Positions 1,601 to 54,226 of a stretch of DNA of 64,000 bases are shown one piece after another. Source of the stretch: an uncultured Bacilli bacterium. Its GTDB lineage: Bacteria; Bacillota_I; Bacilli_A; RF39; UBA660. The notes beneath the pieces were generated by a model. That model saw only the letters and a program-made list of their open reading frames with translations. It was not told the DNA's origin and did not search any database. A program made the position numbers and the translations under genes. Location: the NCBI GenBank assembly GCA_934167885.1, contig CAKPMB010000003.1, forward strand, positions 30,890 to 94,889, read 5' to 3'. The first letter of the stretch is position 1; each line of letters starts with the position of its first letter.

Positions 1601-1612
1601 GAGGATATTGTT

Positions 1613-2266: not shown

Positions 2267-2268
2267 TT

Positions 2269-3151: not shown

Positions 3152-3173
3152 CTCTAGATAAGGAGGATTAGAT

Positions 3174-3542: not shown

Positions 3543-3553
3543 AGGAGCAAAAT

Positions 3554-3862: not shown

Positions 3863-3880
3863 TCGGAAGGAGGGTAATCT

Positions 3881-4420: not shown

Positions 4421-4432
4421 TTGGAGGATATT

Positions 4433-4618: not shown

Positions 4619-4633
4619 AAGGAGGATAAATTT

Positions 4634-5032
4634 ATGGTAGTAACAGATACGATCGCAGATATGCTTACAAGAATTCGTAATGCTAATCAAATGCGCTATC
4701 AAGAAGTTAGTGTACCTGCTTCAAATTTAAAGTGTGAACTTGCTAAAATCCTTAAAGAAGAAGGATTTATTGAAGATTATAAGGTCGAAAAAGATGATGT
4801 TCAAGGAAATATTCTGTTAACATTGAAATATGGACAAAATAAAGAAAGAGTAATTACTGGATTAAAGCGTATTTCTAAACCAGGATTAAGAGTTTATGCA
4901 AAAAGTGATGAAATTCCTAAAGTATTAAATGGATTAGGAATTGCCATTATTTCTACTAGTCATGGTGTTATGACTGATAAAGAGGCTCGTAAACAAAATC
5001 TTGGTGGCGAAGTATTGGCTTATATTTGGTAG
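4634..5032 (+). CDS. rpsH: 30S ribosomal protein S8
   Basis: 132 aa; [18 protein letters not shown]. Confidence 0.98.
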
Positions 5033-5042
5033 AGGTAATAAT

Positions 5043-5582
5043 ATGAGTCGAATTGGAAATAGAAAGATAATTATTCCTGAAGGAATAAATGTAGAGTTAA
5101 ATGGCGATATCATAAAAGTTTCTTCTAACAATGACTCTTTAGAGATGAAATTATCAAACTTAATTAAAATGGAAGTTAATGGTAATGAAATTACTCTTGT
5201 AAAAGTTAATGATAGTAAAGAAGCAAATATGATTCATGGAACAATGAATGCTAATTTAACTAATATGATAATTGGTCTTAAAGAAGGCTATAAAAAAGAT
5301 TTAGAAATTATTGGTGTTGGATATCGTTTCAATGTTAAGGGTGATACACTAGTAATTAATGCAGGATACTCTCATCCAGTTGAATTAAGTATTCCAGCTG
5401 GTTTGAAAGTTGTAGCTACTAGTAATACAGAAATTACTATCTCAGGTAGTGATAAGGTATTATTAGGTGAATTTGCGGCTAACGTTCGTAAAGTTCGTCA
5501 ACCTGAACCATATAAGGGTAAAGGAATTCGTTATAAAGATGAACATGTTCGTCGTAAAGAAGGTAAAAAAGCTGCTAAATAA
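5043..5582 (+). CDS. rplF: 50S ribosomal protein L6
   Basis: 179 aa from ATG 5043 ([12 protein letters not shown]); ORF-track start 5001 overlaps rpsH and is unlikely. Confidence 0.96.
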
Positions 5583-5599
5583 TAGATAAGGAGAAGAAA

Positions 5600-5959
5600 A
5601 TGATAAACAAAGTATCAAAAAACGAAACGCGTAAAATAAGACATGAACGTGTTCGTAGCAAAGTTTATGGAACAAGTGAAGTGCCTAGACTTTGTGTATA
5701 TCGTTCTAATACTAATATTTACGCACAAATTATCGATGATGAAAAGGGTATTACCTTAGTAAGTGCTAATTCATTAGATAAAGATTTAAAACTTACAACT
5801 AACAATCTAGAAGCAGCTAAAAAGATCGGTGAAGTTCTTGCTAAAAAAGCAAAGAAAGCTGGTATTGACAAAGTTGTATTTGATAGAGGTGGATACCTAT
5901 ACCATGGACGTGTTAAAGCTTTAGCTGAAGCTGCTCGCGAAAATGGTCTAGAATTCTAG
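5600..5959 (+). CDS. rplR: 50S ribosomal protein L18
   Basis: 119 aa; [24 protein letters not shown].., [21 protein letters not shown]. Confidence 0.98.
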
Positions 5960-5967
5960 GAGGCGTT

Positions 5968-6483
5968 ATGCAAAATAATAGAAAAGATAATAGAGACAAG
6001 ACAAAAACATTAGAAGAGTTAGTTATTGAAGTAAAAAGCGTTGTTAAAGTTACTCAAGGTGGACGTCAACGTCGTTTCTCTGCTACTGTTGTTGTTGGAG
6101 ACAAAAAAGGAACTGTTGGTATAGGTATTGGTAAAGCTAGTGAAGTACCAGATGCTGTTAAAAAAGCTATCCAATCTGCTAACAAGAACTTAATTAAGAT
6201 AAATCTAATAGATAACCGCACAATTGCTCATGAAGTAGTTGGTAAACAAGGTGCTGCTAAGGTTTTAATTAAACCTGCTCCTGCTGGTGCTGGATTAATC
6301 GCTGGTGGTGCTGTTAGATCTGTACTAGAACTTGCTGGTGTTAAAGATATTTCTTCAAAGTCACTTGGAGCTCGTACTAAGTTAAATATGGCGCAAGCAA
6401 CAATTAATGCATTAAAATCTCTTAAGAGTATGGATGAAGTTTGTCGCTTACGCGGAAAAACAGAAAGTGAGATTTTAGGATAA
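5968..6483 (+). CDS. rpsE: 30S ribosomal protein S5
   Basis: 171 aa; [37 protein letters not shown]. Confidence 0.98.
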
Positions 6484-6926
6484 TGAAGTTAAATGAATTA
6501 ATGCAAAATAAAGGAGCAAAACAAGAAAGAAGACGTGTTGGTCGTGGTATGGGATCTGGACTTGGTAAAACAAGTGGCCGCGGTGAAAAAGGTCAAAAAG
6601 CTCGTAGTGGTGTATCAATAAAAGCTACATTCGAAGGTGGACAATTACCACTTTATCGTCGCCTTCCAAAAAGAGGTTTTTCAAATGCTCCATTTAAGAT
6701 TAAATATGCTGTAATTAATGTTTCTGATTTAAATAGATTTGAAGATGGAACAGTAGTTACTAAAGAATTATTAAAAGAAAGTGGATTAGTTAAGAACCAA
6801 TTAGATGGTGTTAAAGTATTAGGAAATGGCACACTTGAAAAGAAATTAACTATTAAAGCTGATAAATTTTCACGTGAAGCTATTGAAAAAATAGAGAAGT
6901 CAGGAAGTAAGTACGAGGTGATGTAA
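6483..6926 (+). CDS. rplO: 50S ribosomal protein L15
   Basis: 147 aa; [27 protein letters not shown]; TAATG overlap with rpsE, leaving no room for rpmD. Confidence 0.97.
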
Positions 6927-6927
6927 C

Positions 6928-8202
6928 ATGTTTGCTAATTTAAAGCAAATATTTGCACCTACCAACAAGGACTTACGTAAAAGAATATTATTTACATTAG
7001 GTGCATTGTTAATTTTTATTGTAGGAACTACCCTAAGAGTTCCTGGAACAACAGATATTACTAATAACCTTGGATTTTTGGAATTAATAAATGCCATGGG
7101 TGGTGGTGCCTTAAAAAATTTCTCAATTTTTGCATTAGGTGTTTCACCATATATTACTGCTAGTATTATTATTCAATTACTAGAGATGGATATAATTCCT
7201 TATTTTTCCGAATTATCAAAAGAAGGACCTGTTGGAAGACGTAAACTTAATCAAATAACTAGATACGTTGGTATAGCTTTTGCTTTTATTCAAGGATATG
7301 CATTTAGTTATGCATTCCTAGGTAATGCTAGTAGTTTTGATTATTTGTATGTTGCTGTAATTTTAACAGCTGGAACAGCTTTCTGTTTGTGGTTAGGAGA
7401 TCAAATAACTCAAAAAGGTATTGGTAATGGTGTTAGTTTGATGATTATGGCTGGTATTATATCAACCTTACCATCAACATTTATTGCAGCTTTTAAGGAG
7501 CTTGTAGTATTCACTGGTGGCGCATGGCCTATAACCCTTGGTATTTTAAAATTTGTGGGTTTTATTCTTGCATATTTTGTAATTATTGTTGGTGTTATAT
7601 ATGTTCAAGAGGCAGAGCGAAGAATTCCTCTTCAATATGCTAATAGAACAACTGGTTCATATGGTAGTGAGCAATCATTTTTACCAATCAAATTGAATAC
7701 AGCATCCGTTATTCCAGTAATTTTTGCATCTAGTTTGTTAGCAATTCCTGCAACTATCGCTAATTTTGTTAGCAATGAGGGATTTAAAAGTTTTGTAAAT
7801 ACATATTTAGATTATACAAAACCCGTTGGATTTATAATATATATAATTTTAATATTCTTCTTTGGATACTTTTATACATTCTTACAATTAAAACCAGAGG
7901 ATGTATCAGAGAATTTACAAAAGAATGGTGGATATATACCTGGTATTCGTCCAGGTAAGGATACAACAAAGTATGTTAGTTATGTTTTATCAAGAATAAC
8001 AATCACAGGAACATGTTTCTTAATTGTTCTTGCGATTATACCAATTATTTTACAAAAATTGACTGGTTCACAAATTGGTGCTGCCATTGGTGGAACTGGA
8101 ATATTGATTGTTGTTGGTGTTGCTCTTGAAACTTATAAACAGCTTGAAGGAAGCCTTGCAACAAGAACATACAAAAAAGCTGTAAAAGGAAGAAGAAGAT
8201 AA
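6928..8202 (+). CDS. secY: Preprotein translocase subunit SecY
   Basis: 424 aa polytopic membrane protein; GVSPYITASIIIQLL, operon position after rplO. Confidence 0.97.
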   Translation: MFANLKQIFAPTNKDLRKRILFTLGALLIFIVGTTLRVPGTTDITNNLGFLELINAMGGGALKNFSIFALGVSPYITASIIIQLLEMDIIPYFSELSKEGPVGRRKLNQITRYVGIAFAFIQGYAFSYAFLGNASSFDYLYVAVILTAGTAFCLWLGDQITQKGIGNGVSLMIMAGIISTLPSTFIAAFKELVVFTGGAWPITLGILKFVGFILAYFVIIVGVIYVQEAERRIPLQYANRTTGSYGSEQSFLPIKLNTASVIPVIFASSLLAIPATIANFVSNEGFKSFVNTYLDYTKPVGFIIYIILIFFFGYFYTFLQLKPEDVSENLQKNGGYIPGIRPGKDTTKYVSYVLSRITITGTCFLIVLAIIPIILQKLTGSQIGAAIGGTGILIVVGVALETYKQLEGSLATRTYKKAVKGRRR

Positions 8203-8206
8203 GAAG

Positions 8207-8857
8207 ATGAAAAATATTATATTCATAGCTCCACCTGCTGCCGGTAAAGGCACAGCTTCGGAGAAATTATGTGAAAAATATAATTATGTCCATATTTCAA
8301 CAGGTGATATTTTAAGAGAAATGGCTAATGTTGATAATGACTTAGGCCATAATATAAAGAATTTGTTACAAAAAGGAGAACTAATTCCTGATGATATTGT
8401 TTATGAAGCAGTAGAAAAAAGACTTAGTATGCCTGATCTTGATAATGGTTATATTCTAGATGGCTTTCCAAGAAATCTTGAACAAGCTATTAAATATGAT
8501 GAAATATTAAAAAGAATTAATCGTTCACTAGGAATTGTAATAAATTTAGATACGGCTAAAGATGTTCTTGAAAAAAGAATAACTGGACGTCGTATATGTA
8601 AGGTATGTGGTCAAACACATAACGTTCTTACAAATGTAAATGCTCCCGTTGTTGAAGGTAAATGTAACAAATGTGGAGGCGAATTGTATCAAAGAACAGA
8701 TGATAACTATGATTCATTTCAAAATCGTTATAAAACATATCTTGAAAAAACGATGCCTTTATTAGACTATTATGATAAAAAGAATGTTTTATATACCATA
8801 AAGTCAAATGATCCTATGGATACATTAAAGGAAATAGAGGCTTTGATAAATGATTAG
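8207..8857 (+). CDS. adk: Adenylate kinase (zinc-lid type)
   Basis: 216 aa; P-loop APPAAGKGT, lid CKVCG...CNKCGG. Confidence 0.96.
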   Translation: MKNIIFIAPPAAGKGTASEKLCEKYNYVHISTGDILREMANVDNDLGHNIKNLLQKGELIPDDIVYEAVEKRLSMPDLDNGYILDGFPRNLEQAIKYDEILKRINRSLGIVINLDTAKDVLEKRITGRRICKVCGQTHNVLTNVNAPVVEGKCNKCGGELYQRTDDNYDSFQNRYKTYLEKTMPLLDYYDKKNVLYTIKSNDPMDTLKEIEALIND

Positions 8858-9608
8858 TATTAAAAGTGATCGTGAAATTGAATTATTGGCAATTGCTGGA
8901 AATATCGTTTATGAAACACATCAGTATTTAAAACCCTTTGTTAAAGAAGGGATAACTACTAAGGAATTAGATGAGTTAGCTGAAGCGTTTATTTTAAGTA
9001 AAGGTGCAACGCCATCTTTTAAAAATTATGATGGATTTCCAGCAAGTATATGCACAAGTATTAATCAAGAAGTTGTTCATGGTATTCCAAGTCGTCGTCG
9101 TCTTCGAAATGGTGATATAATATCAATAGATATTGGTGCTTGTTATAAGGGATATCATGGTGATTCAGCTTGGACATACGCTGTAGGTGAGATAAGTCCT
9201 AAGAAGAAGGAATTATTAAAACATACAGAGGAAAGTTTATTCGCTGGTCTTAATGAAATTAAACCAGGTGCCCATATCGGCGATATTGGCGAAGCAATAT
9301 TTAATTGTGCAACAAAGTATAATTTAGGTGTTGTTCGTGAATTAGTTGGTCATGGTGTCGGAACTTCTGTGCATGAAGAACCGGATGTTCCAAATTATGG
9401 TCATCGAGGAACTGGTCCAGTTTTAAAGAAGGGTATGGTTATTGCTGTTGAACCAATGTTGACATTGGGAAGAAGAGATATTTGTATTCTTGATGATGAT
9501 TGGACAATTGAAACCGTTGATAATAGCCCAAGTGCTCATTATGAACATACGGTTGCTGTTACCGATAATGGATATCGAATTTTGACGGGGAGGAAATTAA
9601 ATGGCTAA
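8850..9608 (+). CDS. map: Methionine aminopeptidase type I
   Basis: 252 aa; [32 protein letters not shown]; 8-nt overlap with adk. Confidence 0.96.
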
Positions 9609-9816
9609 AAATGATACGATTGAGGTAGAAGGAAAAGTTTTAGAAGTTTTACCGGGTTACAAATTCAAGGTTGAGCTTGTGAATAAGCATATCATTGAAG
9701 CTCACGTTTCCGGTAAAATGCGAATGAATTACATTCGTATCGTGGAAGGCGATAATGTAGTTGTTGAGTTATCGCCATACGATTTAACACGTGGGCGTAT
9801 AACCTATAGGAAATAG
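9601..9816 (+). CDS. infA: Translation initiation factor IF-1
   Basis: 71 aa; [27 protein letters not shown]1-like. Confidence 0.97.
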
Positions 9817-9827
9817 GAGGGAAAATA

Positions 9828-9941
9828 ATGAAAGTTAAACCATCAGTAAAACCAATTTGTGCTAAATGCAAGGTAATTAAACGAAAAGGAAAAGTAATGG
9901 TTATTTGTGAGAACCCAAAACACAAACAAACTCAAGGGTAA
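9828..9941 (+). CDS. rpmJ: 50S ribosomal protein L36
   Basis: Not in ORF track (37 aa): [37 protein letters not shown]; GGAGGG RBS 9816-9821; TAA 9939-9941. Confidence 0.95.
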
Positions 9942-9956
9942 AATAAGGAGGAATTT

Positions 9957-10322
9957 ATGGCACGTATAAAAGGTGTAGATATCCCTAATGACAAACATAT
10001 TGTGATATCTCTAACTTATATTTATGGTATTGGGCATAGTCTTGCTAAAGAAATTTGCGAAAAAGCAAAGATTGACCCAACTAAAAAAGCAGGCGATTTA
10101 ACAATTGAAGAATTAAATTTACTTCGTGATGCTATTGGTGAACATTTAGTTGAAGGTGATTTACGTCGTGAAGTAAATATGAACATTAAAACAAAAATGG
10201 AAATTAATTCATATCAAGGAACTCGTCATAAAAAAGGTTTACCTGTTCGTGGGCAAAGAACTAATAGAAATGCTCGCACAAGAAAAGGAAAAGGTAAGAC
10301 TGTTGCTAATAAAAAGAAATAG
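9957..10322 (+). CDS. rpsM: 30S ribosomal protein S13
   Basis: 121 aa; [26 protein letters not shown]. Confidence 0.98.
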
Positions 10323-10347
10323 TTTAATAAAATTATAGGAGGATAAC

Positions 10348-10731
10348 ATGGCTTATAAGCAAAGAAAGAGAAAAGTTAAGAAGAATATTCCTGAAGGAAT
10401 AGCTCATATTCATGCAACTTTTAATAATACAATAGTTACTCTTTCTGATAAAGAAGGAAATGCTATTGCTTGGGCATCAGCTGGTGCTTTAGGTTTCAAA
10501 GGAAGTAAAAAATCTACACCATTTGCTGCTGGTCTAGCTTCAGAAGCTGCTGGTAAAAAAGCATATGATTTAGGTATGCGTAAGGTTGAGGTATTTGTTA
10601 AAGGATTAGGACCTGGTCGTGAAACAGCAATTAGATCATTACAAACTGCAGGCCTTGAAATTACATCAATTGATGATGTAACACCTATTCCACACAATGG
10701 ATGTCGTCCACCAAAACGTCCACGCGGATAG
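10348..10731 (+). CDS. rpsK: 30S ribosomal protein S11
   Basis: 127 aa; [30 protein letters not shown]. Confidence 0.98.
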
Positions 10732-10753
10732 TATTATTAAAAGGGAGGATTTC

Positions 10754-11722
10754 ATGATTCAATTTGAAAAACCAATTTATAAAATAACAGATTACGTAGA
10801 AAGTAATTTCTATGGTAAATTTGAATTAGAACCTTTAGAAAGAGGTTTTGGAACAACAATCGGTAATGCTTTAAGAAGAGTTTTATTATCAAGCTTACCT
10901 GGTAGTGCAATCTCTAGTGTTAAGATTGATGGAGTTCAACATGAATTCCAAACAATTGAAGGCATAAGAGAAGATGTTGTAACAATTATATTAAATTTAA
11001 AAAGTTTAGTTGTTAAGAATCATACTCAAGATGAAAAAGTTATTAGAATTGATGTAACCGGTAAAGAGGATGAAACTATTGTTACAGCTGGTGATATTAT
11101 TCATGATGCAGATATTGAAATTTTAAATCCTGATTTAGTTATTGCGACAGTAGCTCGTGGTGGACATTTAGGTATGGAAATTAATATTTCAAATGGTCGT
11201 GGATACGTTCGTAGTGAAGAAAATAAAAAAGCATTAGAACTTGCTAATAATAAAAAGGTTGGTTTAATTGCTGTTGATTCACTATATTCACCAATTGAAA
11301 GAGTATCATACGAAGTTGAAAGTGCTCGTGTTGGACAAAATGAAAATTATGATCGTTTAATATTAAATGTTTGGACAAATGGTGCTATGCGCCCAGAAGA
11401 AGCTGTTGCACTTGCTTCACAAATTTTGATTGAACATTTTAAGATGTTAACTGATTTAAGTAATATTGCTGATATGACTGGTATGATGATTGAAAAAACT
11501 GAAGATTCAAAGACTAAGGCATTAGAAACATCAATTGATGATTTAGATTTTTCAGTAAGAGCATACAATTGCTTAAAGAGAGCAAATATTCATACATTAC
11601 AAGATTTAGTAAGTAAAGATGAAAGTGAAATAATGAAAATACGTAATTTAGGAAAGAAATCTTTAAAAGAAGTTTTAGACAAGATTAAAGAAATGGGCCT
11701 AGATTTACGTGATAATGACTAG
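10754..11722 (+). CDS. rpoA: DNA-directed RNA polymerase subunit alpha
   Basis: 322 aa from ATG 10754 (MIQFEKP.., GGGAGG RBS); GNALRRVLLSS NTD and C-terminal domain LDFSVRAYNCLKRANIHTLQDL. Confidence 0.97.
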   Translation: MIQFEKPIYKITDYVESNFYGKFELEPLERGFGTTIGNALRRVLLSSLPGSAISSVKIDGVQHEFQTIEGIREDVVTIILNLKSLVVKNHTQDEKVIRIDVTGKEDETIVTAGDIIHDADIEILNPDLVIATVARGGHLGMEINISNGRGYVRSEENKKALELANNKKVGLIAVDSLYSPIERVSYEVESARVGQNENYDRLILNVWTNGAMRPEEAVALASQILIEHFKMLTDLSNIADMTGMMIEKTEDSKTKALETSIDDLDFSVRAYNCLKRANIHTLQDLVSKDESEIMKIRNLGKKSLKEVLDKIKEMGLDLRDND

Positions 11723-11731
11723 GAGGTACTA

Positions 11732-12076
11732 ATGGCATATAGAAAATTAGGTCGTGATAATAAACATCGTCGTAGTATGCTTGCTACTTTAACGAAAGAA
11801 GTTATCATGAAAGAGAGAATTACAACAACTGAAACACGCGCTAAAGAAGTTCGTAAATGTGTTGATAAAATGATTACTTTAGGTAAACGTGGTGATTTAG
11901 TTTCAAGACGTTCTGCCTTAGCGTTCCTTCATAATGACAAAGAAGTTGTTGATAAAGTATTTAATGATTTAGCAAAACGTTATGAAAAACGTGATGGTGG
12001 ATATACAAGAATTTTAAAAGTTAATGAACGTCGTGGCGATGGTGCATTAATTGATATTATTGAATTAGTAAAATAG
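11732..12076 (+). CDS. rplQ: 50S ribosomal protein L17
   Basis: 114 aa; [20 protein letters not shown]. Confidence 0.98.
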
Positions 12077-12099
12077 CAGACTTTATGTTTGCTTTTTTT
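12075..12099 (+). terminator. Rho-independent terminator closing the ribosomal super-operon
   Basis: AGCAGAC-tttat-GTTTGCT (7 bp incl. one G-U) followed by T6 at 12094-12099. Confidence 0.6.
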
Positions 12100-13372
12100 A
12101 TGGTATAAGTAATGTCTGCCCAATAGATAAATTATTATTTGTAAGGTTATTTAGTCTTTTAATTTCATCAACACTTGTTCCATATTTGTTGGCAATTTTA
12201 TAAAGACTATCCCCTGGTACAACAGTATAAGTTTTATTATTTTCTGTTGTATTTTTTTTGATAATTAATTTTTGACCGATAGATAGATTATTACTTGTAA
12301 GATTGTTTAATCTTTTAATTTCGTCGACTGTTGTATTAAATTTATTAGCGATTTTATATAAACTATCACCAGCAACGACTGTGTATGTTTCGTTATTTGA
12401 ATTGTTATTGTTGTTATCACTACTATTGTTTTGTTTTATAATTAGTTGTTGACCAATGGATAGGTTATTACTAGTAAGATTATTTAGCCTTTTAATTTCA
12501 TCAACAGTTGTATTAAATTTATTAGCAATTTTATATAAACTATCGCCAGCAACGACAGTGTATGTTTCGTTATTTGTATTGTTATTGTTGTTATCACTAC
12601 TATTATTTTGTTTTATAATTAGTTTTTGGCCGATTGACAGAGTATTACTAGTGAGGTTATTTAATCTTTTAATTTCATCAACAGTTGTATTAAACTTGTT
12701 GGCAATTTTATATAAACTATCACCTGATACAACTGTATGTGTTTCTGAATCTTCAACAGTCATACTAGAACTTGGAATAATTAATTCTTGACCAATGGAT
12801 AGATTGTAGTTTTCAAGATTATTAGCATTTATTATATCGTTAGCTTTAAGACCCATTTTTTTGGCAATAGAGTATATGGTATCACCCTTTTGAACAATAT
12901 AAATATTACTTTTATTTATATATTTGTTTAATGCTTGAAATAATAATTCAACAATTTTTTCTACTAAATTATTTGCTACATTTTCATATCTTATAATGAT
13001 TGATTCGGCATCAGGAGTTTCTCTTATTATTTCATAAAAATCTTTAGATGTGTCATTTGGAAGACGTAATTGATAGTATTTGGCAATATTAAGAATGGTT
13101 TTTAATTCATCATTTATAAGTAATGGAAGGCGGTTATCATAGTAGAGTGAATATATTATTTCACTAACTTGACTATTATTCATCTGATTAGATATAACAA
13201 TAGCATTAGTAGCTTCATCATTAATTTTTTTAACCTTTTCACTAATAGATAATGTATTATCTAAAAAGACAGTATTTATATTGTTATCTTTTAACATTTG
13301 AAATAGTTGTTCACTTATACTTTGACTGATATTGGATTTGTCAACAACATCTATATAAACTGTATAATTCAT
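12098..13372 (-). CDS. Six-LysM-repeat protein with N-terminal degenerate amidase_3-like domain
   Basis: 424 aa, no signal peptide. Residues ~157-424 contain six LysM units (GDSLYKIANKFNTTVDEIKRLNNL..LSIGQ.L.I). N-terminal ~150 aa is laid out like a CwlD/Amidase_3 domain, but I cannot find the metal ligands. Confidence 0.8.
   Translation of the reverse strand: MNYTVYIDVVDKSNISQSISEQLFQMLKDNNINTVFLDNTLSISEKVKKINDEATNAIVISNQMNNSQVSEIIYSLYYDNRLPLLINDELKTILNIAKYYQLRLPNDTSKDFYEIIRETPDAESIIIRYENVANNLVEKIVELLFQALNKYINKSNIYIVQKGDTIYSIAKKMGLKANDIINANNLENYNLSIGQELIIPSSSMTVEDSETHTVVSGDSLYKIANKFNTTVDEIKRLNNLTSNTLSIGQKLIIKQNNSSDNNNNNTNNETYTVVAGDSLYKIANKFNTTVDEIKRLNNLTSNNLSIGQQLIIKQNNSSDNNNNNSNNETYTVVAGDSLYKIANKFNTTVDEIKRLNNLTSNNLSIGQKLIIKKNTTENNKTYTVVPGDSLYKIANKYGTSVDEIKRLNNLTNNNLSIGQTLLIP
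12101..12742 (-). repeat. In-frame tandem DNA repeats (~177-nt units) encoding LysM plus Asn/Ser-rich linkers
   Basis: Near-identical units ET(H/Y)TVV(S/A)GDSLYKIANKFNTTVDEIKRLNNLTSN.LSIGQ.LIIKQNNSSDNNNNN repeated; visible as repeated DNA blocks 12.2-12.75 kb. Confidence 0.85.
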
Positions 13373-25991: not shown

Positions 25992-26067
25992 GGGGCATTA
26001 GCTCAGCTGGGAGAGCGTCACGTTTGCACCGTGAAGGTCAACGGTTCGATCCCGTTATGCTCCACCA
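25992..26067 (+). tRNA. tRNA-Ala (anticodon UGC), CCA encoded
   Basis: Cloverleaf read by hand: acceptor GGGGCAT/ATGCTCC with G3:U70 identity pair, anticodon loop TTTGCAC, T-arm GGTTCGATCC, 3' ACCA. Confidence 0.93.
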
Positions 26068-28532: not shown

Positions 28533-28600
28533 TATTGAATAACATAATAATTTTTGATAAAATCATATTAGAAAAAATAAAACAAAGGATATGATGAAAA

Positions 28601-28641
28601 GTGTTAAATAGTATCAAAACAAATGTGTCAAAAAGTGTCAA
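28601..28641 (+). promoter_or_regulatory. Four phased GTNTNAA heptamers (candidate regulator-binding array), copy 1
   Basis: GTGTTAA 28601, GTATCAA 28611, GTGTCAA 28625, GTGTCAA 28635 (offsets 0/10/24/34). The heptamers are invariant in all three leaders, whereas the spacers differ. Confidence 0.35.
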
Positions 28642-28644
28642 TAT

Positions 28645-28653
28645 GGGGGGGGG
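28645..28653 (+). repeat. Homopolymeric G9 tract, copy 1
   Basis: Nine consecutive G counted directly, 85 nt upstream of ATG 28738. Confidence 0.95.
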
Positions 28654-28697
28654 TTACTTTATTGAGTAATCAACCTAATTTAGATTGTTTATTGAAG

Positions 28698-28725
28698 AGA
28701 ACAAGATTAAGTCTTGTTCTTTTAT
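28698..28725 (+). terminator. Terminator-like leader hairpin just upstream of the RBS, copy 1
   Basis: AGAACAAGA-ttaag-TCTTGTTCT (9 bp) followed by TTTAT, then GGAG RBS and ATG 28738; same element at 31463-31490 and 51631-51658. Confidence 0.4.
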
Positions 28726-28737
28726 GTGGAGTGAAAG

Positions 28738-31293
28738 ATGAAGACTAGGAAGAGTATATTAATGATATTAGGCCTAGTTTTATTGTTAGGCGGGAGTTAT
28801 GCTTTTTATACTTATCAAAAGTATAGTGATATGCAGAATCTTTTAAATGGTGAGATTTATCTAAATTATTTAGAAGATAATGAAGTGCATATAAGTGGCA
28901 TATTTCCAGAGACCAAAGAAGAAGCATTAAAAAGAAATGATAACACAATAAGCTTTAAAGTATTAAGCAAGAATACTAGTGATAAAGATATTTATTATGG
29001 TATTACTTTAAATTATGGCGAAGAGATAAGTAATAAGATTAGAATAGATGCTAAATACATCATGATATATCTAGAATGTGATGGTAAAGTCCTAATAGAT
29101 GGTATAAGATATAGTGACTTTAATAATCGAAGAATCTATGTAGACAAGATAGATGCCAAAACATATACTGAAACTACTAAAAATTACACTCTAAGATTCT
29201 GGGTAGATGAAGAAACCACAATAAGTGATACTGATAGTAATGCTAGTTATAAAGCCACCGAGTGGGCGAATAGTTACTTAAATTTTAAAGTGAATGTAGA
29301 CGCTGGTTTAGAAACGATGAACATGCCTTTATCAATGGAAACCAGTGATACTTATGTAGAAAATAATAAAGCTTATTTTATTGCCAAGATAAGCAACTTT
29401 ATAAATGTAGAAGATCTTGGTAAAGATAGTAACGATACGATGAATTTAAAAGTAACAGGCACTAATAGTGATATTAAGTTTAGTTATAAAGATAGTGAAG
29501 GAAATACCGTTGAAGAAAAGAGTGCTACTCTAGATTTAACCTATCTATTCACTAAAAATAAAACAGTTGAAATCCAAGTCTTTGTTCATCCAAACAACGA
29601 TGCAAATGGTAAAACCAATGTTCTTTTAGAAATATACAAAAATAAAGAATTAATGCAAAGTTTTATTAAAAGAGTAGAAGTTAAAGGCAATAACTATTGT
29701 TTAAATAATGGCTTTAATAAATTAGTTGATTGTATGTTAGTAAGTGATAGTTTAAGTGAATCTGTTGATGTTGCTAAAACCAATATTGTCAACAAAGGCG
29801 AACCAAACCTAAATGATACCGCTCCAACATATACCTATGTTGAACAATTAACTGAAGATGTATCAAATCCATATAGTTATAATAGTATTAAATTTGCCTT
29901 TTCTAAGACGTATGAATTTGATGAAACTACTGGAGGTTTTAAATTAAGTGGCGATGTAATTGTGGATTATTTAAGCGATAAGTATATTGAATATTATACC
30001 GGTGGTGCTTATTGGTCTAATTCTTTTGATAAAATATTTTTCGTTAAAGGTGTAGATGTTCAAGAAACATCTCAAAAAATAACTAAAGCCGATGTCATAA
30101 CATATAAGATTGCAAGTTCTATTAGGTCAGAGGTTGGACTTTACAAGACTGTTGATAATTATGGAGATGTCTATTACTATCGAGGGGATGTCCAAAATAA
30201 TAATGTTTATTTTGGCGGATTCTACTGGAAAGTAATAAGAACCAATGGAGATGGAAGTATTCGCTTAATATATAATGGAAAAAATCAAAATGAAAATTAT
30301 ATATCTATAAATAATAAAAAATATTTATATAGCAACGGACATTCTGATCCAACATATGTTGGTTATATGTATGGTGAAAATTTTAAGTTACAAACTAGTC
30401 CTGTAATTAATTATTCATATTTTTATGCGGTTGATACATATACATTTGCGGATAGTTATATATTTGACGAAGACAAAAAAATGTTTGTTTTAAGTGGTAA
30501 CACTATTTCTGGGACTTTTTCGGCAATTAAAGATGAAGTGTCAAATTATCCTTATTCTTGCTTTAGACAGAAACTTTCTAACCAAAATGAATGTCAAATA
30601 TTACTTAAAATAAATTCATATATAAGTTCTGATAAGGCAAGTGTTCAATTAATATCTTATTCATCACAAAACAGTGCTAATACACGAACTAATGATTATG
30701 ATAGTAATGTCAAGAATGAGATAGATTTATGGTATGAACAGAATATAATATCTAATGAAGATAGTTATAATAATAATTTAACAGATTATATTGTTGATAA
30801 TTCTTTTTGTAATGATAGGTCATTTGCTAGTAGTGTAGAATATAATTCTGGATATCGTGTATTTGAACGAACAAATTATGCACCTCTTTCAAGGATTTCC
30901 ACTAATGTTAATAAGAGTGCTACGTTAAAGTGTAATTGGGATGTAAGAGATATGTTTAGTGTAACAAGCGCATATGGTAATGCTAAACTAAAATACCCCA
31001 TTGCTTTAATAACTGTTGATGAAGTAGCCTTAGCAGGTGGTAAATCGTCGTATAAAAATATTAATTATTATTTAAATAGTAATGATATGTTTATAACAAT
31101 GACACCATCATTTTATTCGGAAGCAAATGTATTATCAAGTATGTTTTATGTGAAAAGAGATGGAGCAATTAATCAGTGGGGTTATGTCGATACGTTATAT
31201 TCTATCATGCCAGTAATCAACATTCGTTCTGATGTTTTAATATCATCTGGCGATGGAACAATGGATAATCCTTACACATTAAAATTAAAATAA
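28738..31293 (+). CDS. Mosaic membrane-anchored surface protein, paralog 1
   Basis: 851 aa; N-terminal anchor ILMILGLVLLLGGSYAFY. Residues 1-369 are nearly identical to paralogs 2 and 3. Conserved island YKIASSIRSEVGLYK..YGDVYYYRGDVQNNNVYFGG.YWK.IRTNGDGSIRLIY. C-terminal PVINIRSDVLISSGDG..NPY.LKL. Confidence 0.85.
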   Translation: MKTRKSILMILGLVLLLGGSYAFYTYQKYSDMQNLLNGEIYLNYLEDNEVHISGIFPETKEEALKRNDNTISFKVLSKNTSDKDIYYGITLNYGEEISNKIRIDAKYIMIYLECDGKVLIDGIRYSDFNNRRIYVDKIDAKTYTETTKNYTLRFWVDEETTISDTDSNASYKATEWANSYLNFKVNVDAGLETMNMPLSMETSDTYVENNKAYFIAKISNFINVEDLGKDSNDTMNLKVTGTNSDIKFSYKDSEGNTVEEKSATLDLTYLFTKNKTVEIQVFVHPNNDANGKTNVLLEIYKNKELMQSFIKRVEVKGNNYCLNNGFNKLVDCMLVSDSLSESVDVAKTNIVNKGEPNLNDTAPTYTYVEQLTEDVSNPYSYNSIKFAFSKTYEFDETTGGFKLSGDVIVDYLSDKYIEYYTGGAYWSNSFDKIFFVKGVDVQETSQKITKADVITYKIASSIRSEVGLYKTVDNYGDVYYYRGDVQNNNVYFGGFYWKVIRTNGDGSIRLIYNGKNQNENYISINNKKYLYSNGHSDPTYVGYMYGENFKLQTSPVINYSYFYAVDTYTFADSYIFDEDKKMFVLSGNTISGTFSAIKDEVSNYPYSCFRQKLSNQNECQILLKINSYISSDKASVQLISYSSQNSANTRTNDYDSNVKNEIDLWYEQNIISNEDSYNNNLTDYIVDNSFCNDRSFASSVEYNSGYRVFERTNYAPLSRISTNVNKSATLKCNWDVRDMFSVTSAYGNAKLKYPIALITVDEVALAGGKSSYKNINYYLNSNDMFITMTPSFYSEANVLSSMFYVKRDGAINQWGYVDTLYSIMPVINIRSDVLISSGDGTMDNPYTLKLK

Positions 31294-31295
31294 AT

Positions 31296-31502
31296 AATAT
31301 TGAATAACATGATAATATTTGATAAAATCATATTAGAAAAAATAAAACAAAGGATATGATGAAAAGTGTTAAATAGTATCAAAGAGAATGTGTCAAAAAG
31401 TGTCAATATGGGGGGGGGTTACTTTATTAAGTAACAAACCTAATTTAGATTGTAAACAATGTAGAACAAGATTAAGTCTTGTTCTTTTATGTGGAGCAAA
31501 AC
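31296..31502 (+). repeat. Conserved leader, copy 2
   Basis: Starts 3 nt after the stop of paralog 1; heptamers at 31366/31376/31390/31400, hairpin 31463-31485. Confidence 0.9.
31410..31418 (+). repeat. Homopolymeric G9 tract, copy 2
   Basis: Nine consecutive G counted directly. Confidence 0.95.
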
Positions 31503-34055
31503 ATGAAGACTAGGAAGAATATATTAATTGTATTAGGCCTAGTCTTATTGTTAGGCGGCAGTTATGCCTTTTATACTTATCAAAAGTATAGTGGTATGCA
31601 AAACCTTTTAAATGGTGAGATTTATCTAAATTATTTAGAAGATAATGAAGTGCATATAAGTGGCATATTTCCAGAGACTAAGGAAGAAGCTTTAAAAAGA
31701 GATGATAACACTATAAGTTTTAAAGTATTAAGCAAGAATACGAGTGACAAAGATATATATTATGGTATTACTTTAAATTATGGTGAAGAGATAAGTAATA
31801 AGGTGAGAATTGATGCTAAATATATTATGATATATCTAGAATGTGATGGTAAAGTATTGATTGATGGTATAAGGTATAGTGACTTTAATAATCGAAGAAT
31901 TTATGTAGATAAAATAGATACCAAAACATATACCGAAACTACTAAGAATTATACATTAAGGTTCTGGGTAGATGAAGAAACCACGATAAGTGATACCGAC
32001 ATTAATGCTAGTTACAAAGCAACTGAATGGGCGAATAGTTATTTAAATTTTAAGGTTAATGTTGACGCTGGTTTAGAAACGATGAACATGCCTTTATCCA
32101 TGGAAACAAGTGATACTTATGTAGAAAATAATAAAGCTTATTTTATTGCCAAGATAAGCAACTTTATAAATATAGAAGACCTTGGTAAGGACAGTAATGA
32201 TACCATGAATTTAAAAGTAAGTGGAACTAATAGTGACATTAAATTTAGTTATAAAGATAGTGAAGGCAATACTGTTGAAGAAAAGAGTGATACGCTAGAT
32301 TTAACCTATCTATTCACCAAGAATAAAACCGTTGAAATTCAAGTGTTTGTTCATCCAAATAATGATGCCAACGGAAAGACTAATGTTTTATTAGAAATAT
32401 ACAAAAACAAGGAACTAATGCAGAGTTTTATTAAAAGAGTAGAAGTAAAAGGTAATAACTATTGTTTAAACAATGGCTTTAATAAATTAGTTGATTGTAT
32501 GTTAGTAAGCGATAGTTTAAGTGAATCTATTGATATTGCTAAAACCAATATTGCCAACAAAGGCGAACCAAATTTAAATGATACGGCTCCAAGTTACACC
32601 TATGTTGAAAAAATAGAAGAAGGATTAAATAATCCATACAGTAGTTCGTTAAATAAGTTTCTTTTTTCAAAGACATATGAATTTGATGCTAAAACCGGTA
32701 AATATGCTTTAACTGGTAATATAATTCGTGATAATTTAAGTGATGACTATATTGGTTATTATACAATCGGAGCATCGAGCATAGATTATTATGAAGCTAA
32801 TACTATGTATAAAATTTCTGAAACTAAAAAAGAAGGCGATAATTACATTATAACGAAAGGTGATAAATATAGTTATAAGATTGCAAGTTCTATTCGTTCA
32901 GAAGTAGGTTTATATAAAAATGCTGATGATTATGGTGATGTTTATTACTATCGAGGTGACGTTCAAAATAATAATGTTTATTTTGGTGGGTATTACTGGA
33001 AGATTATAAGGACGAACGGCGATGGAAGTATTCGTTTGATATATAGTGGCAAGACTAAAAATGCTACTGGTAGTGGTGTATCAATAAATAGTCAAACTTA
33101 TTCATATAATACTAAGTATTTTGATCCAACCTATATGGGCTATATGTATGGTAAGAACTTTGTAGAACAAGAAAGTGAACAAACCCTTAATGTAACCTTT
33201 AATGCCTATACAAAATATCTTATTTCATCATCTTATGTATGGAATAGTGAGACAAATAAGTATGAATTAAGCGGCGATATTGTTAGTTCAACTCTTATTG
33301 ATATAAAAGATAATTTACAAAATTATCATTGGACTTGTAGAAGTGATACACAAAATAGTTGCGAAGTTTTATATAAAATTAATGCTGTTTATAGTGAAAG
33401 TCAAGCTTATGTTCAGTATCTTGCTCATTCTTCGGTTGATTTAGATGGCACTAGGACAAATGAATTCGATAGTGATGTTAAAAAGCAAATAGATTTATGG
33501 TATGCTAACAATATTATTAATGTCAAAGATTCTTTTAATAATTTATTAACAGATTATATTGTTGATAATACCTTTTGTAATGATCGAAGCATAACCGATA
33601 AAACATATAACTCTGGTTATAAATTAGGGAATCATACTTTTTATTCTCCTTATGGGAGAATTTATCAAAATGCTAACAAAACAGCGACATTAAAATGTTC
33701 GAGTGATGTGCGTAATCAGTTTAGCACAACTTCCATATATGGTAATGCTAACTTAACGTATCCTGTTGCTTTGATAACCCTAGATGAAGTAGTTTTAGCT
33801 GGTGGTAAGTATGATGCAAAGAATGAAAACTTTTTTCTTAATCAAAATGTTAATTATTGGACGATGACGCCAATGGTTTTTAGTTCTTATTATTTAAATG
33901 CATCTATCGGCCTTGTTTCGTTTTTGGGAAGTATTTTCAATGGTGCTTCTTTGAATAATAATGTGGTAAGGCCGGTTATTAACATTCGCTCTGACGTTTT
34001 AATATCATCAGGCGATGGGAGTGTTAACAATCCTTACATTTTGAAGATAAACTAG
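31503..34055 (+). CDS. Mosaic membrane-anchored surface protein, paralog 2
   Basis: 850 aa from ATG 31503 (MKTRKNILIV.., same RBS context as paralogs 1 and 3; ORF-track start 31479 is an upstream TTG inside the hairpin). Confidence 0.85.
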   Translation: MKTRKNILIVLGLVLLLGGSYAFYTYQKYSGMQNLLNGEIYLNYLEDNEVHISGIFPETKEEALKRDDNTISFKVLSKNTSDKDIYYGITLNYGEEISNKVRIDAKYIMIYLECDGKVLIDGIRYSDFNNRRIYVDKIDTKTYTETTKNYTLRFWVDEETTISDTDINASYKATEWANSYLNFKVNVDAGLETMNMPLSMETSDTYVENNKAYFIAKISNFINIEDLGKDSNDTMNLKVSGTNSDIKFSYKDSEGNTVEEKSDTLDLTYLFTKNKTVEIQVFVHPNNDANGKTNVLLEIYKNKELMQSFIKRVEVKGNNYCLNNGFNKLVDCMLVSDSLSESIDIAKTNIANKGEPNLNDTAPSYTYVEKIEEGLNNPYSSSLNKFLFSKTYEFDAKTGKYALTGNIIRDNLSDDYIGYYTIGASSIDYYEANTMYKISETKKEGDNYIITKGDKYSYKIASSIRSEVGLYKNADDYGDVYYYRGDVQNNNVYFGGYYWKIIRTNGDGSIRLIYSGKTKNATGSGVSINSQTYSYNTKYFDPTYMGYMYGKNFVEQESEQTLNVTFNAYTKYLISSSYVWNSETNKYELSGDIVSSTLIDIKDNLQNYHWTCRSDTQNSCEVLYKINAVYSESQAYVQYLAHSSVDLDGTRTNEFDSDVKKQIDLWYANNIINVKDSFNNLLTDYIVDNTFCNDRSITDKTYNSGYKLGNHTFYSPYGRIYQNANKTATLKCSSDVRNQFSTTSIYGNANLTYPVALITLDEVVLAGGKYDAKNENFFLNQNVNYWTMTPMVFSSYYLNASIGLVSFLGSIFNGASLNNNVVRPVINIRSDVLISSGDGSVNNPYILKIN

Positions 34056-51434: not shown

Positions 51435-51479
51435 TTAAGTTTATGATTAAATACTAAAAAAATTTATTGGACTTTCATT

Positions 51480-51670
51480 ATGATTTTTGATAGAATGATG
51501 GTAGAAAAAATAAAACAAAGGGTATGATGAAAAGTGTTAAATAGTATCAAATTAAATGTGTCAAATAGTGTCAACATGGGGGGGGGTTACTTTATTAAGT
51601 AACAAACCTAATTTAGAGTGTAAACGGGTTAGAACAAGATTAAGTCTTGTTCTTTTATGTGGAGTAAAAG
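51480..51670 (+). repeat. Conserved leader, copy 3
   Basis: Homology to leaders 1 and 2 begins near tgatttttgata; heptamers at 51534/51544/51558/51568, hairpin 51631-51653. Confidence 0.9.
51578..51586 (+). repeat. Homopolymeric G9 tract, copy 3
   Basis: Nine consecutive G counted directly. Confidence 0.95.
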
Positions 51671-54226
51671 ATGAAGACTAGGAAATATATGCTGATGATG
51701 TTAGGCCTAGTCTTATTGTTAGGCGGAAGTTATGCGTTTTACACTTATCAAAAATATAGTGGGATGCAGAATCTTTTAAATGGTGAGATTTATCTAAATT
51801 ATTTAGAAGACAATGAAGTTCATATAAGTGGCATATTTCCAGAGACAAAAGAAGAAGCTTTAAAGAGAAATGATAACACGATAAGTTTTAAAGTATTAAG
51901 TAAGAATACGAGTGACAAAGATATCTATTATGGTATTACTTTAAATTATGGTGAAGAGATAAGTAATAAGATTAGGATAGATGCTAAATACATTATGATA
52001 TACCTAGAATGTGATGGTAAAGTTTTAATAGATGGAATAAGGTATAGTGACTTCAATAATCGAAGAATCTATGTAGACAAGATAGATGCCAAAACATATA
52101 CGGAAACTACTAAAAATTATACTTTAAGATTCTGGGTAGATGAAGAAACAACAATAAGTGATACCGATAGTAACGCTAGTTACAAAGCCACGGAGTGGGC
52201 GAATAGTTATTTAAATTTTAAAGTCAATGTCGATGCCGGCTTAGAAACCATGAACATGCCCTTATCAATGGAAACTAGTGATACTTATGTAGAAAATAAT
52301 AAAGCTTATTTTATCGCTAAGATAAGTAACTTTATAAATATAGAAGATCTTGGTAAAGACAGCAACGATACTATGAACTTAAAAGTAAGTGGCACCAATA
52401 GTGATATCAAATTCAGTTATAAGGATAGTGAAGGAAATATTGTTGAAGAAAAGAGTGACACATTAGATTTAACCTATCTATTTACCAAAAACAAAACAGT
52501 TGAAATTCAAGTCTTTGTGCATCCAAATAATGATGCAAATGGAAAAACTAATGTTTTTTTAGAAATATACAAAAACAAAGAATTAATGCAAAGTTTTATC
52601 AAAAGAGTAGAAGTGAAAGGAAACAACTATTGCTTAAACAATGGTTTTAATAAATTAGTTGATTGTATGTTAGTAAGTGATAGTTTAAGCAATTCAGTTG
52701 ATGTTGCCAAGACTAACATTTCTAATAAAGGTGAACCAAATTTAAATGATACCGCTCCAACTTATACATATGTTGAAGAACTAACAGAAGATGTAGAAAA
52801 TCCATACAACATCACAGGATATAAATTTAATTTTTCACAAACATATGAATTTGATGAAAAGACTGGAACGTTTAAACTAACAGGTGATATTATAACAGAT
52901 TATTTGAGTGATGATTATATAGGATACTGGACAGGGGGCGGAACAAATGTAGGATATTCTAATTTGAATAATATATACTTTGTAAAGGAAATAGATGCAT
53001 CAACAATCAATTATAAGATAACAAAGGCAGATGTTCAAACATATAAAATTGCAACTTCCATTCGGTCAGAAGTAGGGTTATATAAAACTGAAGATGATTA
53101 TGGTGATGTTTATTACTATCGTGGTGATGTTCAAAATAATAATGTTTATTTTGGAGGATACTATTGGAAAATAATAAGAACAAACGGTGACGGAAGTATT
53201 AGATTAATTTATAATGGTGCATTAAAAGATAGTAATGGCGATAATGTATCAATAAATAATAAAATATATCCCTACAATAGAAGATATCAAGATCCAACCT
53301 ATGTTGGTTATATGTATGGTAAAAATTTTGCACATCAAATAAGCGAAGAAACTAAGTATTATGATATGGCGGTTTCAACTAAATATTATTTTGCAGATGA
53401 TTATGAGTTTGATGAAACTACTGAGAATTACAAATTAAAAGGAAATATAAAACAAGGAACTTTTAATGAGATGAAAGATGAGTTCGAAGCATATCCATAT
53501 ACTTGCCGAAGAACAAGTTCAACTTCATCATGTGAAGTATTAATAAAGGTAAATAGTTTATCGACAGGAACAAGTATTAATGTTCAATATTATTCATATT
53601 CCTCAACAAGCTTAGATGGCACCAGGACAAATGAAGTATCAAATAGTGCTAAAACACAACTAGATGACTGGTATGCTACAAATGTGGTCAGCAAATCTGA
53701 CAGTGATGGCAATTTATTAACAAATTATATTGTGGATGAAAGATTTTGCAATGACCGCAGTATAACAGATGAGATATTTAATTCAGGCTATAAACTAACT
53801 CAAAAAACGTATTATGCACCATATGCGCGATTATATAGAAATGCTAATAAGACTGCGACTTTAAAATGTTCAAGTGATGTTCGAGATCAATTCAGCAAGA
53901 CATCGTCTCGTGGCAATGCAAGATTAACGTATCCTGTAGCGTTAATAACAGCCGATGAAGTAGTTTTTGCTGGTGGTAAATATAATGTTAAAAATGAAAA
54001 ATATTATTTATGCTCAAATGCATCTGCTTGGACTATGACACCATTTCGTTTTGAAACAGATAATGTCTATGCATATAATTTGTTTATTAATAAAAATGGT
54101 TCGATATTTACTAATGGTGTAATTTCGTCTCATGCTATACGGCCTGTTATCAATATTCGTTCCGATGTCTTAATATCAAGTGGTGACGGCACCAAATCTA
54201 GCCCATACCACTTAAAACTACAATAA
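51671..54226 (+). CDS. Mosaic membrane-anchored surface protein, paralog 3
   Basis: 851 aa; same anchor, same conserved N-terminal 369 aa, conserved island and C-terminal RPVINIRSDVLISSGDG..PY.LKL; variable blocks unique. Confidence 0.85.
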   Translation: MKTRKYMLMMLGLVLLLGGSYAFYTYQKYSGMQNLLNGEIYLNYLEDNEVHISGIFPETKEEALKRNDNTISFKVLSKNTSDKDIYYGITLNYGEEISNKIRIDAKYIMIYLECDGKVLIDGIRYSDFNNRRIYVDKIDAKTYTETTKNYTLRFWVDEETTISDTDSNASYKATEWANSYLNFKVNVDAGLETMNMPLSMETSDTYVENNKAYFIAKISNFINIEDLGKDSNDTMNLKVSGTNSDIKFSYKDSEGNIVEEKSDTLDLTYLFTKNKTVEIQVFVHPNNDANGKTNVFLEIYKNKELMQSFIKRVEVKGNNYCLNNGFNKLVDCMLVSDSLSNSVDVAKTNISNKGEPNLNDTAPTYTYVEELTEDVENPYNITGYKFNFSQTYEFDEKTGTFKLTGDIITDYLSDDYIGYWTGGGTNVGYSNLNNIYFVKEIDASTINYKITKADVQTYKIATSIRSEVGLYKTEDDYGDVYYYRGDVQNNNVYFGGYYWKIIRTNGDGSIRLIYNGALKDSNGDNVSINNKIYPYNRRYQDPTYVGYMYGKNFAHQISEETKYYDMAVSTKYYFADDYEFDETTENYKLKGNIKQGTFNEMKDEFEAYPYTCRRTSSTSSCEVLIKVNSLSTGTSINVQYYSYSSTSLDGTRTNEVSNSAKTQLDDWYATNVVSKSDSDGNLLTNYIVDERFCNDRSITDEIFNSGYKLTQKTYYAPYARLYRNANKTATLKCSSDVRDQFSKTSSRGNARLTYPVALITADEVVFAGGKYNVKNEKYYLCSNASAWTMTPFRFETDNVYAYNLFINKNGSIFTNGVISSHAIRPVINIRSDVLISSGDGTKSSPYHLKLQ

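Follow-up and report, generated by a model that had tools for sequence, protein, structure and literature searches.

Poly-G tracts inside leader-peptide genes as a candidate phase-variation switch of a paralogous protein family in uncultured gut Bacilli

Three G9 tracts in the leaders of a paralog family

The stretch of 64,000 nucleotides analysed here (the window) comes from an uncultured Bacilli bacterium (GenBank assembly GCA_934167885.1, contig CAKPMB010000003.1, positions 30,890 to 94,889) and carries three homologous genes, copies A, B and C, each of which follows a leader with a run of nine consecutive G. An earlier note on this DNA (the original prediction) had proposed these runs as phase-variation switches of surface-protein genes. 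The placement it gave is borne out by the sequence: exactly three G9 runs occur in the window, at 28645-28653, 31410-31418 and 51578-51586, all on the + strand, and the distance from the end of the tract to the ATG of the homologous paralog (28738, 31503 and 51671) is 85 nt in all copies. That such runs exceed chance in AT-rich DNA was likewise confirmed, with a window GC content of 27.2%, no other G or C run of 6 nt or more, and six G8 matches observed against 0.11 expected, a number reached in none of 100 dinucleotide-preserving shuffles of the window. In 513 kb of related DNA that we fetched, all 45 G/C runs of at least 7 nt were tracts of these leaders. About 200 nt of leader around the tract are 85-93% identical between the copies, and the repeated unit extends at this identity from the promoter into the paralog coding region.

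Copy A encodes a protein of 851 aa (gene with its Shine-Dalgarno (SD) sequence at 28728-31293, + strand; GGAG at 28728-28731, ATG at 28738), copy B one of 850 aa (31503-34055, +) and copy C one of 851 aa (51671-54226, +). An N-terminal transmembrane helix is followed by a predicted beta-rich protein with beta-sandwich domains. The AlphaFold model of a paralog is of moderate quality (pLDDT 63), the matches from Foldseek against the PDB were confined to generic beta-sandwiches of Ig-like or GH2 type at TM-scores of about 0.1, and Pfam and NCBIfam searches of the paralogs gave no match. Residues 1-360 share about 96% identity among the three copies and residues 360-851 share 12-57%, and such a combination of a constant N-terminal with a variable C-terminal half is typically seen in variable surface antigens. 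From the leader through codon 360 the copies seem to have been homogenised, perhaps by gene conversion. The tandem paralog array at 28738-34055 has two copies in the window and three in other strains (L041, L043, L044). A paralog outside the window, P0023, has different upstream neighbours in different samples (L031 vs L032; also L042), indicating recombination or rearrangement between paralog loci.

About 75-80 nt upstream of the tract, copies A, B and C carry a predicted TG-extended, sigma-70-like promoter, recognised by its consensus matches. In copy A it was found by a promoter scan at 28535-28563 (+; -35 TTGAAT, 17-nt spacer, TG-extended -10 TGATAAAAT), and the transcription start site (TSS) would lie at about 28570. 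Copy B has TTGAAT-N17-TGATAAAAT at 31300-31328 (+), and for copy C TTGGAC-N18-TGATAGAAT was assigned from sequence and alignment at 51467-51496 (+). This architecture is retained in copies B and C and in the leaders of a more distant clade (clade 2, see below) despite diverged sequence. An SD sequence, AAAGGAtaTGAT, was read in copy A at 28584-28595 (+); it resembles the extended SD consensus of Firmicutes, AAAGGAGGTGAT, which derives from the 16S 3' end, and its core AAAGGA lies 9 nt before GTG 28601. Homology and SD spacing suggest that this GTG serves as the start of a leader-peptide upstream open reading frame (uORF), which has 22 codons in the G9 state (28601-28669, +; VLNSIKTNVSKSVNMGGGYFIE, TAA at 28667-28669) and counterparts in copy B (31366-31434, +; VLNSIKENVSKSVNMGGGYFIK) and copy C (51534-51602, +; VLNSIKLNVSNSVNMGGGYFIK). 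The tract lies inside it; in copy A its nine Gs complete the Met codon ATG 28643-28645 with the last base, spell two Gly codons GGG and fill the first two positions of a GGT.

The original prediction had set the tract inside a 41-codon ORF instead. This ORF is present (28623-28748, +; internal ATG without an SD, ending at TAG 28746-28748), and G8 or G10 would, as had been claimed, truncate it, the remaining length being 13 or 15 codons. The position within a uORF could be retained, but the conserved, SD-preceded uORF is in a different frame, starting at GTG 28601. From 28654 onward the 41-codon ORF occupies the frame that a G8 or G11 uORF would follow, through the terminator.

Two predicted hairpins lie 3' of the uORF start. 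The post-tract hairpin of copy A (28647-28676, +) pairs the 3' Gs of the tract with a downstream CCU and has an inner stem GUUACUU/GAGUAAU; it folds at -13.6 kcal/mol (z = -4.3) and is part of the RNAalifold consensus. Across the copies the values are -10.7 to -13.6 kcal/mol with z about -4, and equivalent G:C hairpins of the tract are present in clades 2 and 3. As one guess, it might act as a pause hairpin. The putative attenuator of copy A (28699-28725, +) consists of a hairpin at 28699-28719 (GAACAAGA-TTAAG-TCTTGTTC) followed by TTTTAT, and folds at -14 kcal/mol (z = -5.2). Its sequence is identical in the three copies (-10.6 to -14 kcal/mol, z = -4 to -5); it lies at 31464-31490 (+) in copy B, where it was reported by the terminator scan (-10.6 kcal/mol, z = -4.7), and at 51632-51658 (+) in copy C. 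The gap between the uORF stop of copy A (28667-28669) and the terminator stem is 29 nt with G9 and 33 nt with G10. The tract itself precedes the terminator by 46-72 nt.

A search of the whole window gave no leader match at the Rfam gathering score, and a relaxed leader search (E<=10) returned noise, the best E-values being 2.7-7.7 at 15-18 bits against thresholds of 50-81. A conserved antiterminator pairing was not found in consensus folds of the leaders. A G-quadruplex was set aside, as a single G run cannot form an intramolecular one. An altered genetic code was ruled out because TAA, TAG and TGA all serve as stops; TAG and TGA can thus be taken as true stops in the uORF frames. Within the otherwise conserved leader, two spots are hypervariable. 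One, at 28619-28621 and its equivalents in the other copies, is exactly one uORF codon (ACA, GAG, TTA, TCA, ATA or TTG), and the other, at 28692-28697, is a stretch of about 6 nt just ahead of the terminator stem; a stop in the relevant frame is never created at either. Direct repeats within the uORF abut the tract in every clade and differ in sequence by clade (window 28625-28641 and equivalents; L023 and L011). Clade 1 has GTGTCAA twice at 10-nt spacing, clade 2 has GTTAAC/GTCAAC, and clade 3 has three copies of CTTTACA.

Leader layout and tract length among relatives

With more than 200 members, the paralog family occurs in gut metagenomes and in 'uncultured Bacilli' metagenome-assembled genomes (MAGs). 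We fetched 44 relative loci and used 25 leaders for frame analysis. In the scan of genome contigs a single-protein query found nothing and an alignment-based query gave 21 loci; a scan of JGI metagenomes gave 4. Contig retrieval merged loci with the same neighbouring genes, so that strain-level sampling of identical loci is limited. The organisms carrying the relative loci are spore-formers with cell walls, as reflected by spore-coat, YabP, YqfD, Mur and sortase genes. The loci fall into three clades: clade 1, to which the window belongs, at 66-100% protein identity, clade 2 at about 50% (e.g. CALVOW bin28 with at least 10 paralogs) and clade 3, from Hadza MAGs, at about 45%.

All 25 leaders of the three clades (45-100% protein identity) share one layout, in the order SD, start codon, small ORF with a G8-G10 tract, hairpin with U run, SD, paralog. 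The leader sequences of clades 1 and 3 cannot be aligned, yet the order of parts is the same. In clade 3 the uORF is preceded by a strong GGAG-N8-ATG (e.g. MNDSFTNTNTPTLQNFTWGGGGRNTL), and in clade 2 by AGAAAGG..N9..ATG (e.g. MLNNSRNKVNSMSTMGGV); the start codon is found at -44 from the tract and the SD core at a spacing of 9 nt in both clades 1 and 2. Terminator hairpins are stronger outside clade 1, reaching -21 kcal/mol in clade 2 and -15 kcal/mol in clade 3. One clade-2 leader (L004) contains a 436-bp insert at 2383-2818, about 11 nt 3' of its G10 tract, which parts the uORF from the terminator. Its ends are perfect inverted repeats of 21 bp (CAATGTAGTCAACTTAAGAAA), TCTAAACCG is apparently duplicated, and the insert resembles a miniature inverted-repeat transposable element. 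Some clade-3 paralogs (L012, L015, L011 at 2650-3000) keep the terminator hairpin without a G tract; they have AACTTTAAAAAATG in place of AACTTTACATG10 and an extra promoter-like TTTATAAT segment downstream of the terminator, which suggests that these copies have escaped the switch.

Two of the three frames that leave the tract meet a stop 0-22 nt downstream in all 25 leaders analysed, and the third is open to +59 to +121 in 25/25, where it stops shortly before the hairpin, within it or past it. The long frame of clade 1 and of L007/L024 ends a few nt past the paralog ATG. For the SD-preceded frame of the window, G9 and G10 both give the short uORF, ending 12-16 nt beyond the tract; G8 and G11 give 48 aa and 49 aa, respectively, through the hairpin, and this fused uORF ends at a TAG 8 nt past the paralog ATG. 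Every clade-1 leader has the GTG-started frame open. The uORF stops of clades 2 and 3 lie at least 26 nt before the stem, and about 48 nt or more before it in the commonest state; 7/10 clade-2 leaders are in the short and 3/10 in the long state.

Tract length was found to differ in five independent cases with flanks differing at 0-3 of 150 nt, four of them G9/G10 and one G8/G9. Copy C of the window is G9 and its counterpart L038 (public ENA contig ERZ27287327 k141_1955815, tract at 289-298) is G10, the two agreeing at every other position over 3,337 nt; around copies A and B, the window is fully identical to L001 and L002. This discrepancy may reflect either a window that stems from a sister assembly or a tract that was resolved differently from the same population. 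The earlier statement that all tracts are of equal length holds within the window and fails for copy C against this near-twin contig. Copy A is G9 and the orthologous leader L041_7142 from another sample G10, and L030_10672 is G9 compared to G10 in L039 and L040 (two samples, two assemblers). L031 and L033 are G9 and L032 is G10 before a gene for the same protein, P0023, and L006 is G9 (long state) compared to G8 (short state) in L035_9798. As a practical caveat, assemblies of the same strain can differ at these tracts.

Further alleles emerged when the long-frame peptide was used as a protein-database query for uORF calls in public assemblies. Besides 41-aa ORFs, which correspond to the G9 state, the query returned 48-aa ORFs of the form MLNSIK..NMGGVTLL..ED (9 clusters), equal to the predicted G8 product, 49-aa ORFs with ..NMGGGVTLL.. 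(3 clusters), equal to the predicted G11 product, and 47-aa ORFs with ..NMGVTLL.. (P0151-P0153), equal to the predicted G5 product. These fused ORFs match the simulated products in length and in the junction from uORF to long frame, with paralog-level substitutions only, and one of them (P0150) is of the copy-A leader type. Gene callers start the fused ORF at the GTG (MLNSIK...) and label the 41-, 48- and 49-aa frames hypothetical proteins. A G5 allele in the long frame may be 'locked ON', its hypermutability lost.

An invariant G9 among related strains had been named beforehand as the outcome that would speak against a switch. With five length differences on matching flanks and the implied G8, G11 and G5 alleles, the tract is not invariant: G8, G9 and G10 occur on near-identical flanks. 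The idea of a hypermutable homopolymer acting as a phase-variation switch of surface-protein paralogs is thus supported by length differences between related strains, and the tract is very probably a hypermutable contingency site.

Elsewhere in the window, a minus-strand ORF at 12098-13372 (424 aa) contains four to five tandem 177-nt units (12096-12823, 72-89% identity) encoding a 59-aa repeat protein. Positions 1-12000 hold a ribosomal-protein-like cluster with many small co-directional ORFs, and the sole tRNA gene of the window lies at 25992-26064 (Rfam, 64.8 bits).

A proposed attenuation switch and its alternatives

From the leader anatomy and the tract-length alleles, each paralog probably has a heritable on/off switch, for which we propose the following mechanism. 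The G9 tract would be a hotspot of slipped-strand mispairing within a leader-peptide gene that precedes a paralogous surface-protein gene. Transcription would start at the TG-extended promoter upstream of the tract, and ribosomes would bind AAAGGA and initiate at GTG 28601 (31366 and 51534 in copies B and C). With G9 or G10, the uORF would end about 30 nt before the hairpin-and-U-run terminator, the terminator would form, and most transcripts would end before the paralog, leaving its expression low or OFF. With G8 or G11, the uORF would enter the sole frame open through the terminator, and the translating ribosome would melt or occlude the 5' arm of the hairpin and allow transcription to read through; translation may also couple into the paralog, which would be ON. 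This polarity (G9 low or OFF, G8 or G11 ON) is inferred by analogy with a proven streptococcal system described below. As there is one tract per paralog, a population could show different protein combinations, the displayed proteins having a common N-terminal half and differing C-terminal halves. Taken as a whole, this leader-peptide poly-G and attenuator mechanism is in our estimate moderately probable.

Several points weigh against it. Some open frame is easily obtained by chance, with a probability of 0.09-0.69 per leader in shuffles; combined over five diverged groups the value is about 1e-3. As the statistics of single leaders are weak, the argument rests on the consistent geometry across clades. 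The clade-1 DNA that we fetched has only G9 and G10, and the G8, G11 and G5 alleles derive from protein sequences. As MutS and MutL are present, the tract itself must be the sole source of any hypermutability. The terminators of the window are modest (-10.6 to -14 kcal/mol, U tail TTTTAT), and the copy-A hairpin, into whose stem the U run can pair, was not called by the terminator scan. RNA polymerase is known to outrun the ribosome in Bacillus subtilis, and so Bacilli need not support ribosome-dependent attenuation, though it is proven in Streptococcus gallolyticus. Finally, an out-of-frame ATGATG overlaps the uORF SD and opens a 6-codon ORF (MMKSVK), and the SD-less ATG at 28623 opens the 41-codon frame; if that ATG were used, G9 would be ON and not OFF.

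The latter possibility amounts to the same switch with opposite polarity: translation would start at ATG 28623, perhaps by reinitiation after the MMKSVK ORF, with G9 as the ON state and G8 or G10 as OFF. The 41-codon ORF is indeed found in nearly every clade-1 leader, many assemblies annotate it as a gene of 41 aa, its ATG sits 13 nt after the TAG of the SD-proximal mini-ORF, and G9 is the commonest length in clade 1 (24/28 leader observations), as would fit selection for ON; overall it makes up 30/45 tracts. We nevertheless consider this version unlikely. ATG 28623 has no SD, it is replaced by ATA in L030_7908 and L041_7142 with the rest of the leader intact, and no equivalent of the 41-codon ORF exists in clades 2 and 3, where a long-frame start is missing apart from one partial exception: L023 has a second ATG, 12 nt downstream of its SD, that lies in the long frame. 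The SD-preceded start at -44, on the other hand, is positionally kept between clades 1 and 2, and gene callers choose the GTG whenever the frames are fused. A fixed role of the G run, as a cis-regulatory RNA element or as a codon element, with length differences that are neutral or assembly noise, appears quite unlikely. Rare GGG codons (4% of Gly codons) might stall ribosomes in the manner of trp/his-type attenuators, sensing Gly-tRNA, or the tract might form the 5' arm of an RNA polymerase pause hairpin, as its 3' Gs pair with conserved downstream Cs in all three clades, in a C-poor genome. However, frame-altering changes of ±1 recur on otherwise identical flanks, in one case in two samples and with two assemblers, both short and long alleles exist, the downstream genes are unrelated to glycine metabolism, and no Rfam family matched. 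Moreover, a pure G run has persisted in clades whose proteins share only about 45-50% identity. The tract GGGGGGGGG and the synonymous replacement GGTGGAGGT encode the same peptide, and a need for Gly-Gly-Gly alone would drift to GGT/GGA at 27% GC, so that the pure run speaks against a fixed element.

Switching could also be mainly non-genetic: transcriptional slippage by RNA polymerase, or +1/-1 ribosomal frameshifting on the G run aided by the neighbouring hairpin, would direct a constant share of ribosomes into the long frame, and expression would be graded and leaky in place of heritable ON and OFF states. Homopolymers of at least 9 nt are known RNA polymerase slippage sites, the heptamer G GGG GGG conforms to the slippery motif X XXY YYZ, and a stable hairpin begins within the tract. 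As an explanation in its own right this is very unlikely: the hairpin starts 0-1 nt after the heptamer, compared to the usual 5-9 nt, the long frame is reached from G9 by a +1 and not a -1 shift, and the genomic length polymorphism is enough to explain switching. It could coexist with the proposed attenuation mechanism. The original prediction had offered, as a further position of effect, a promoter spacer, in which tract length would set the distance between TGTCAA (-35-like) and TTATTG (-10-like) and so tune promoter strength. The string TGTCAA-N17-TTATTG is literally present in copy A. The proposal itself could not be upheld and is highly improbable: TTATTG agrees with TATAAT at 1/6 positions and was not reported by the promoter scan, so that no acceptable -10 follows the tract, copies B and C carry TTATTA, and clades 2 and 3 have ACCGCC there or a non-canonical spacing. 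The conserved TG-extended promoter lies upstream, and the tract itself is inside an SD-preceded ORF.

Returning to the leader-peptide attenuation switch, a much broader reading may be entertained as speculation, which we regard as rather doubtful. A spore-forming lineage of gut Bacilli would possess genome-wide combinatorial surface variation, with 3 to 10 or more proteins of constant N-terminal and hypervariable C-terminal half, each gated by its own poly-G leader-peptide attenuator; G run and hairpin might in addition drive slippage or frameshifting, making the switching partly non-genetic.

Comparison with known switches and attenuators

Classical homopolymer loci include the intragenic poly-G tracts of Campylobacter jejuni and the poly-G tract in the 5' untranslated region of Moraxella catarrhalis uspA1, and promoter poly-G/C tracts occur at Neisseria porA/opc and Treponema pallidum tpr. 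The window tracts resemble these in the G run of 8-11 nt, the low-GC or host-adapted genome, the surface-protein genes concerned and the ±1 differences between strains. They differ in that the tract is located in a separate uORF before a terminator, outside both the structural ORF and a promoter spacer. An intragenic contingency locus was thus rejected, the tract being 85 nt upstream of the paralog ATG with a terminator hairpin in between, as was the promoter-spacer class (porA/opc/fim/vlp/tpr), for want of an acceptable -10 after the tract and of conserved geometry. A trp/his-type attenuator was also rejected: rare Gly codons are present (two GGG, GGT), but the downstream genes are not Gly-related and no conserved antiterminator was found in the leader folds. 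In the E. coli pyrBI operon, the leader ORF spans the attenuator hairpin and a ribosome close behind RNA polymerase prevents termination. The long uORF likewise reads through an attenuator hairpin; coupling is physiological in pyrBI (UTP-dependent pausing) and would be genetic here, depending on the uORF frame.

The closest likeness is to the pil1 and pil3 loci of S. gallolyticus, where GCAGA repeats in a leader-peptide gene form an experimentally proven switch (Danne et al. 2014, PLoS Pathog, PMC3894217). The short leader stops at least 28-39 nt before the terminator; when the repeat changes out of frame, the peptide extends into the hairpin or beyond it, the hairpin is blocked by ribosomes and transcription increases (PMC3894217). 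Besides a translation-dependent rise of transcription and bimodal expression in single cells, this type is recognised by features of layout, which the window shares: a predicted upstream promoter, a repeat in an ORF preceded by a putative ribosome-binding site (RBS), a predicted terminator in between, the stop distance, frame extension and length variation. The order of promoter, RBS, repeat-bearing leader ORF, stem-loop terminator, RBS and surface-structure gene is the same, the low-state leader stops about 30-40 nt before the hairpin (29 nt for G9 in the window), and a frame-shifting repeat change lengthens the peptide into or beyond the hairpin. In both, repeat number differs between isolates, and both belong to Gram-positive gut bacteria. 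The differences are equally clear. The repeat of the window is a G homopolymer (G8-G11) and that of pil consists of 13-22 GCAGA units; only one of three frames is long in the window, whereas both out-of-frame changes lengthen the pil1 peptide; and a small hairpin uses the 3' Gs of the window tract itself. There is no sequence homology, and the window-type switch would control 3 to 10 or more paralogs of about 850 aa instead of sortase pili. Given a G homopolymer and no pilin, sortase or Pfam domain downstream, it is an analogue of pil1, not a homologue.

Our literature searches on homopolymer or uORF phase variation combined with attenuation brought up only the S. gallolyticus work, and no homopolymer version is described in the literature citing that study, as searched. 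Phase variation by leader length and terminator has so far been shown only for S. gallolyticus pili, according to this literature. If true, the system of the window would be an independent, non-homologous instance and, for a mechanism known from a single species of Streptococcus, the first version based on a homopolymer, pointing to a general, convergently evolved design in Gram-positive gut bacteria. It would employ the simplest possible repeat, replicated over a whole gene family in three diverged clades. The layout also provides a signature for mining metagenomes, namely an SD-preceded uORF that contains a G/C run and lies before a terminator, where just one of the frames stays open as far as the hairpin. 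The uncharacterised variable surface-protein family downstream is a candidate for likely targets of host immunoglobulin A or phages in the human gut. Compared to pil1 and pil3, we are probably dealing with a non-homologous, homopolymer-based version of a rare leader-peptide attenuation switch that extends across a multigene family, and its effect on expression would, by analogy, be that of the streptococcal system.

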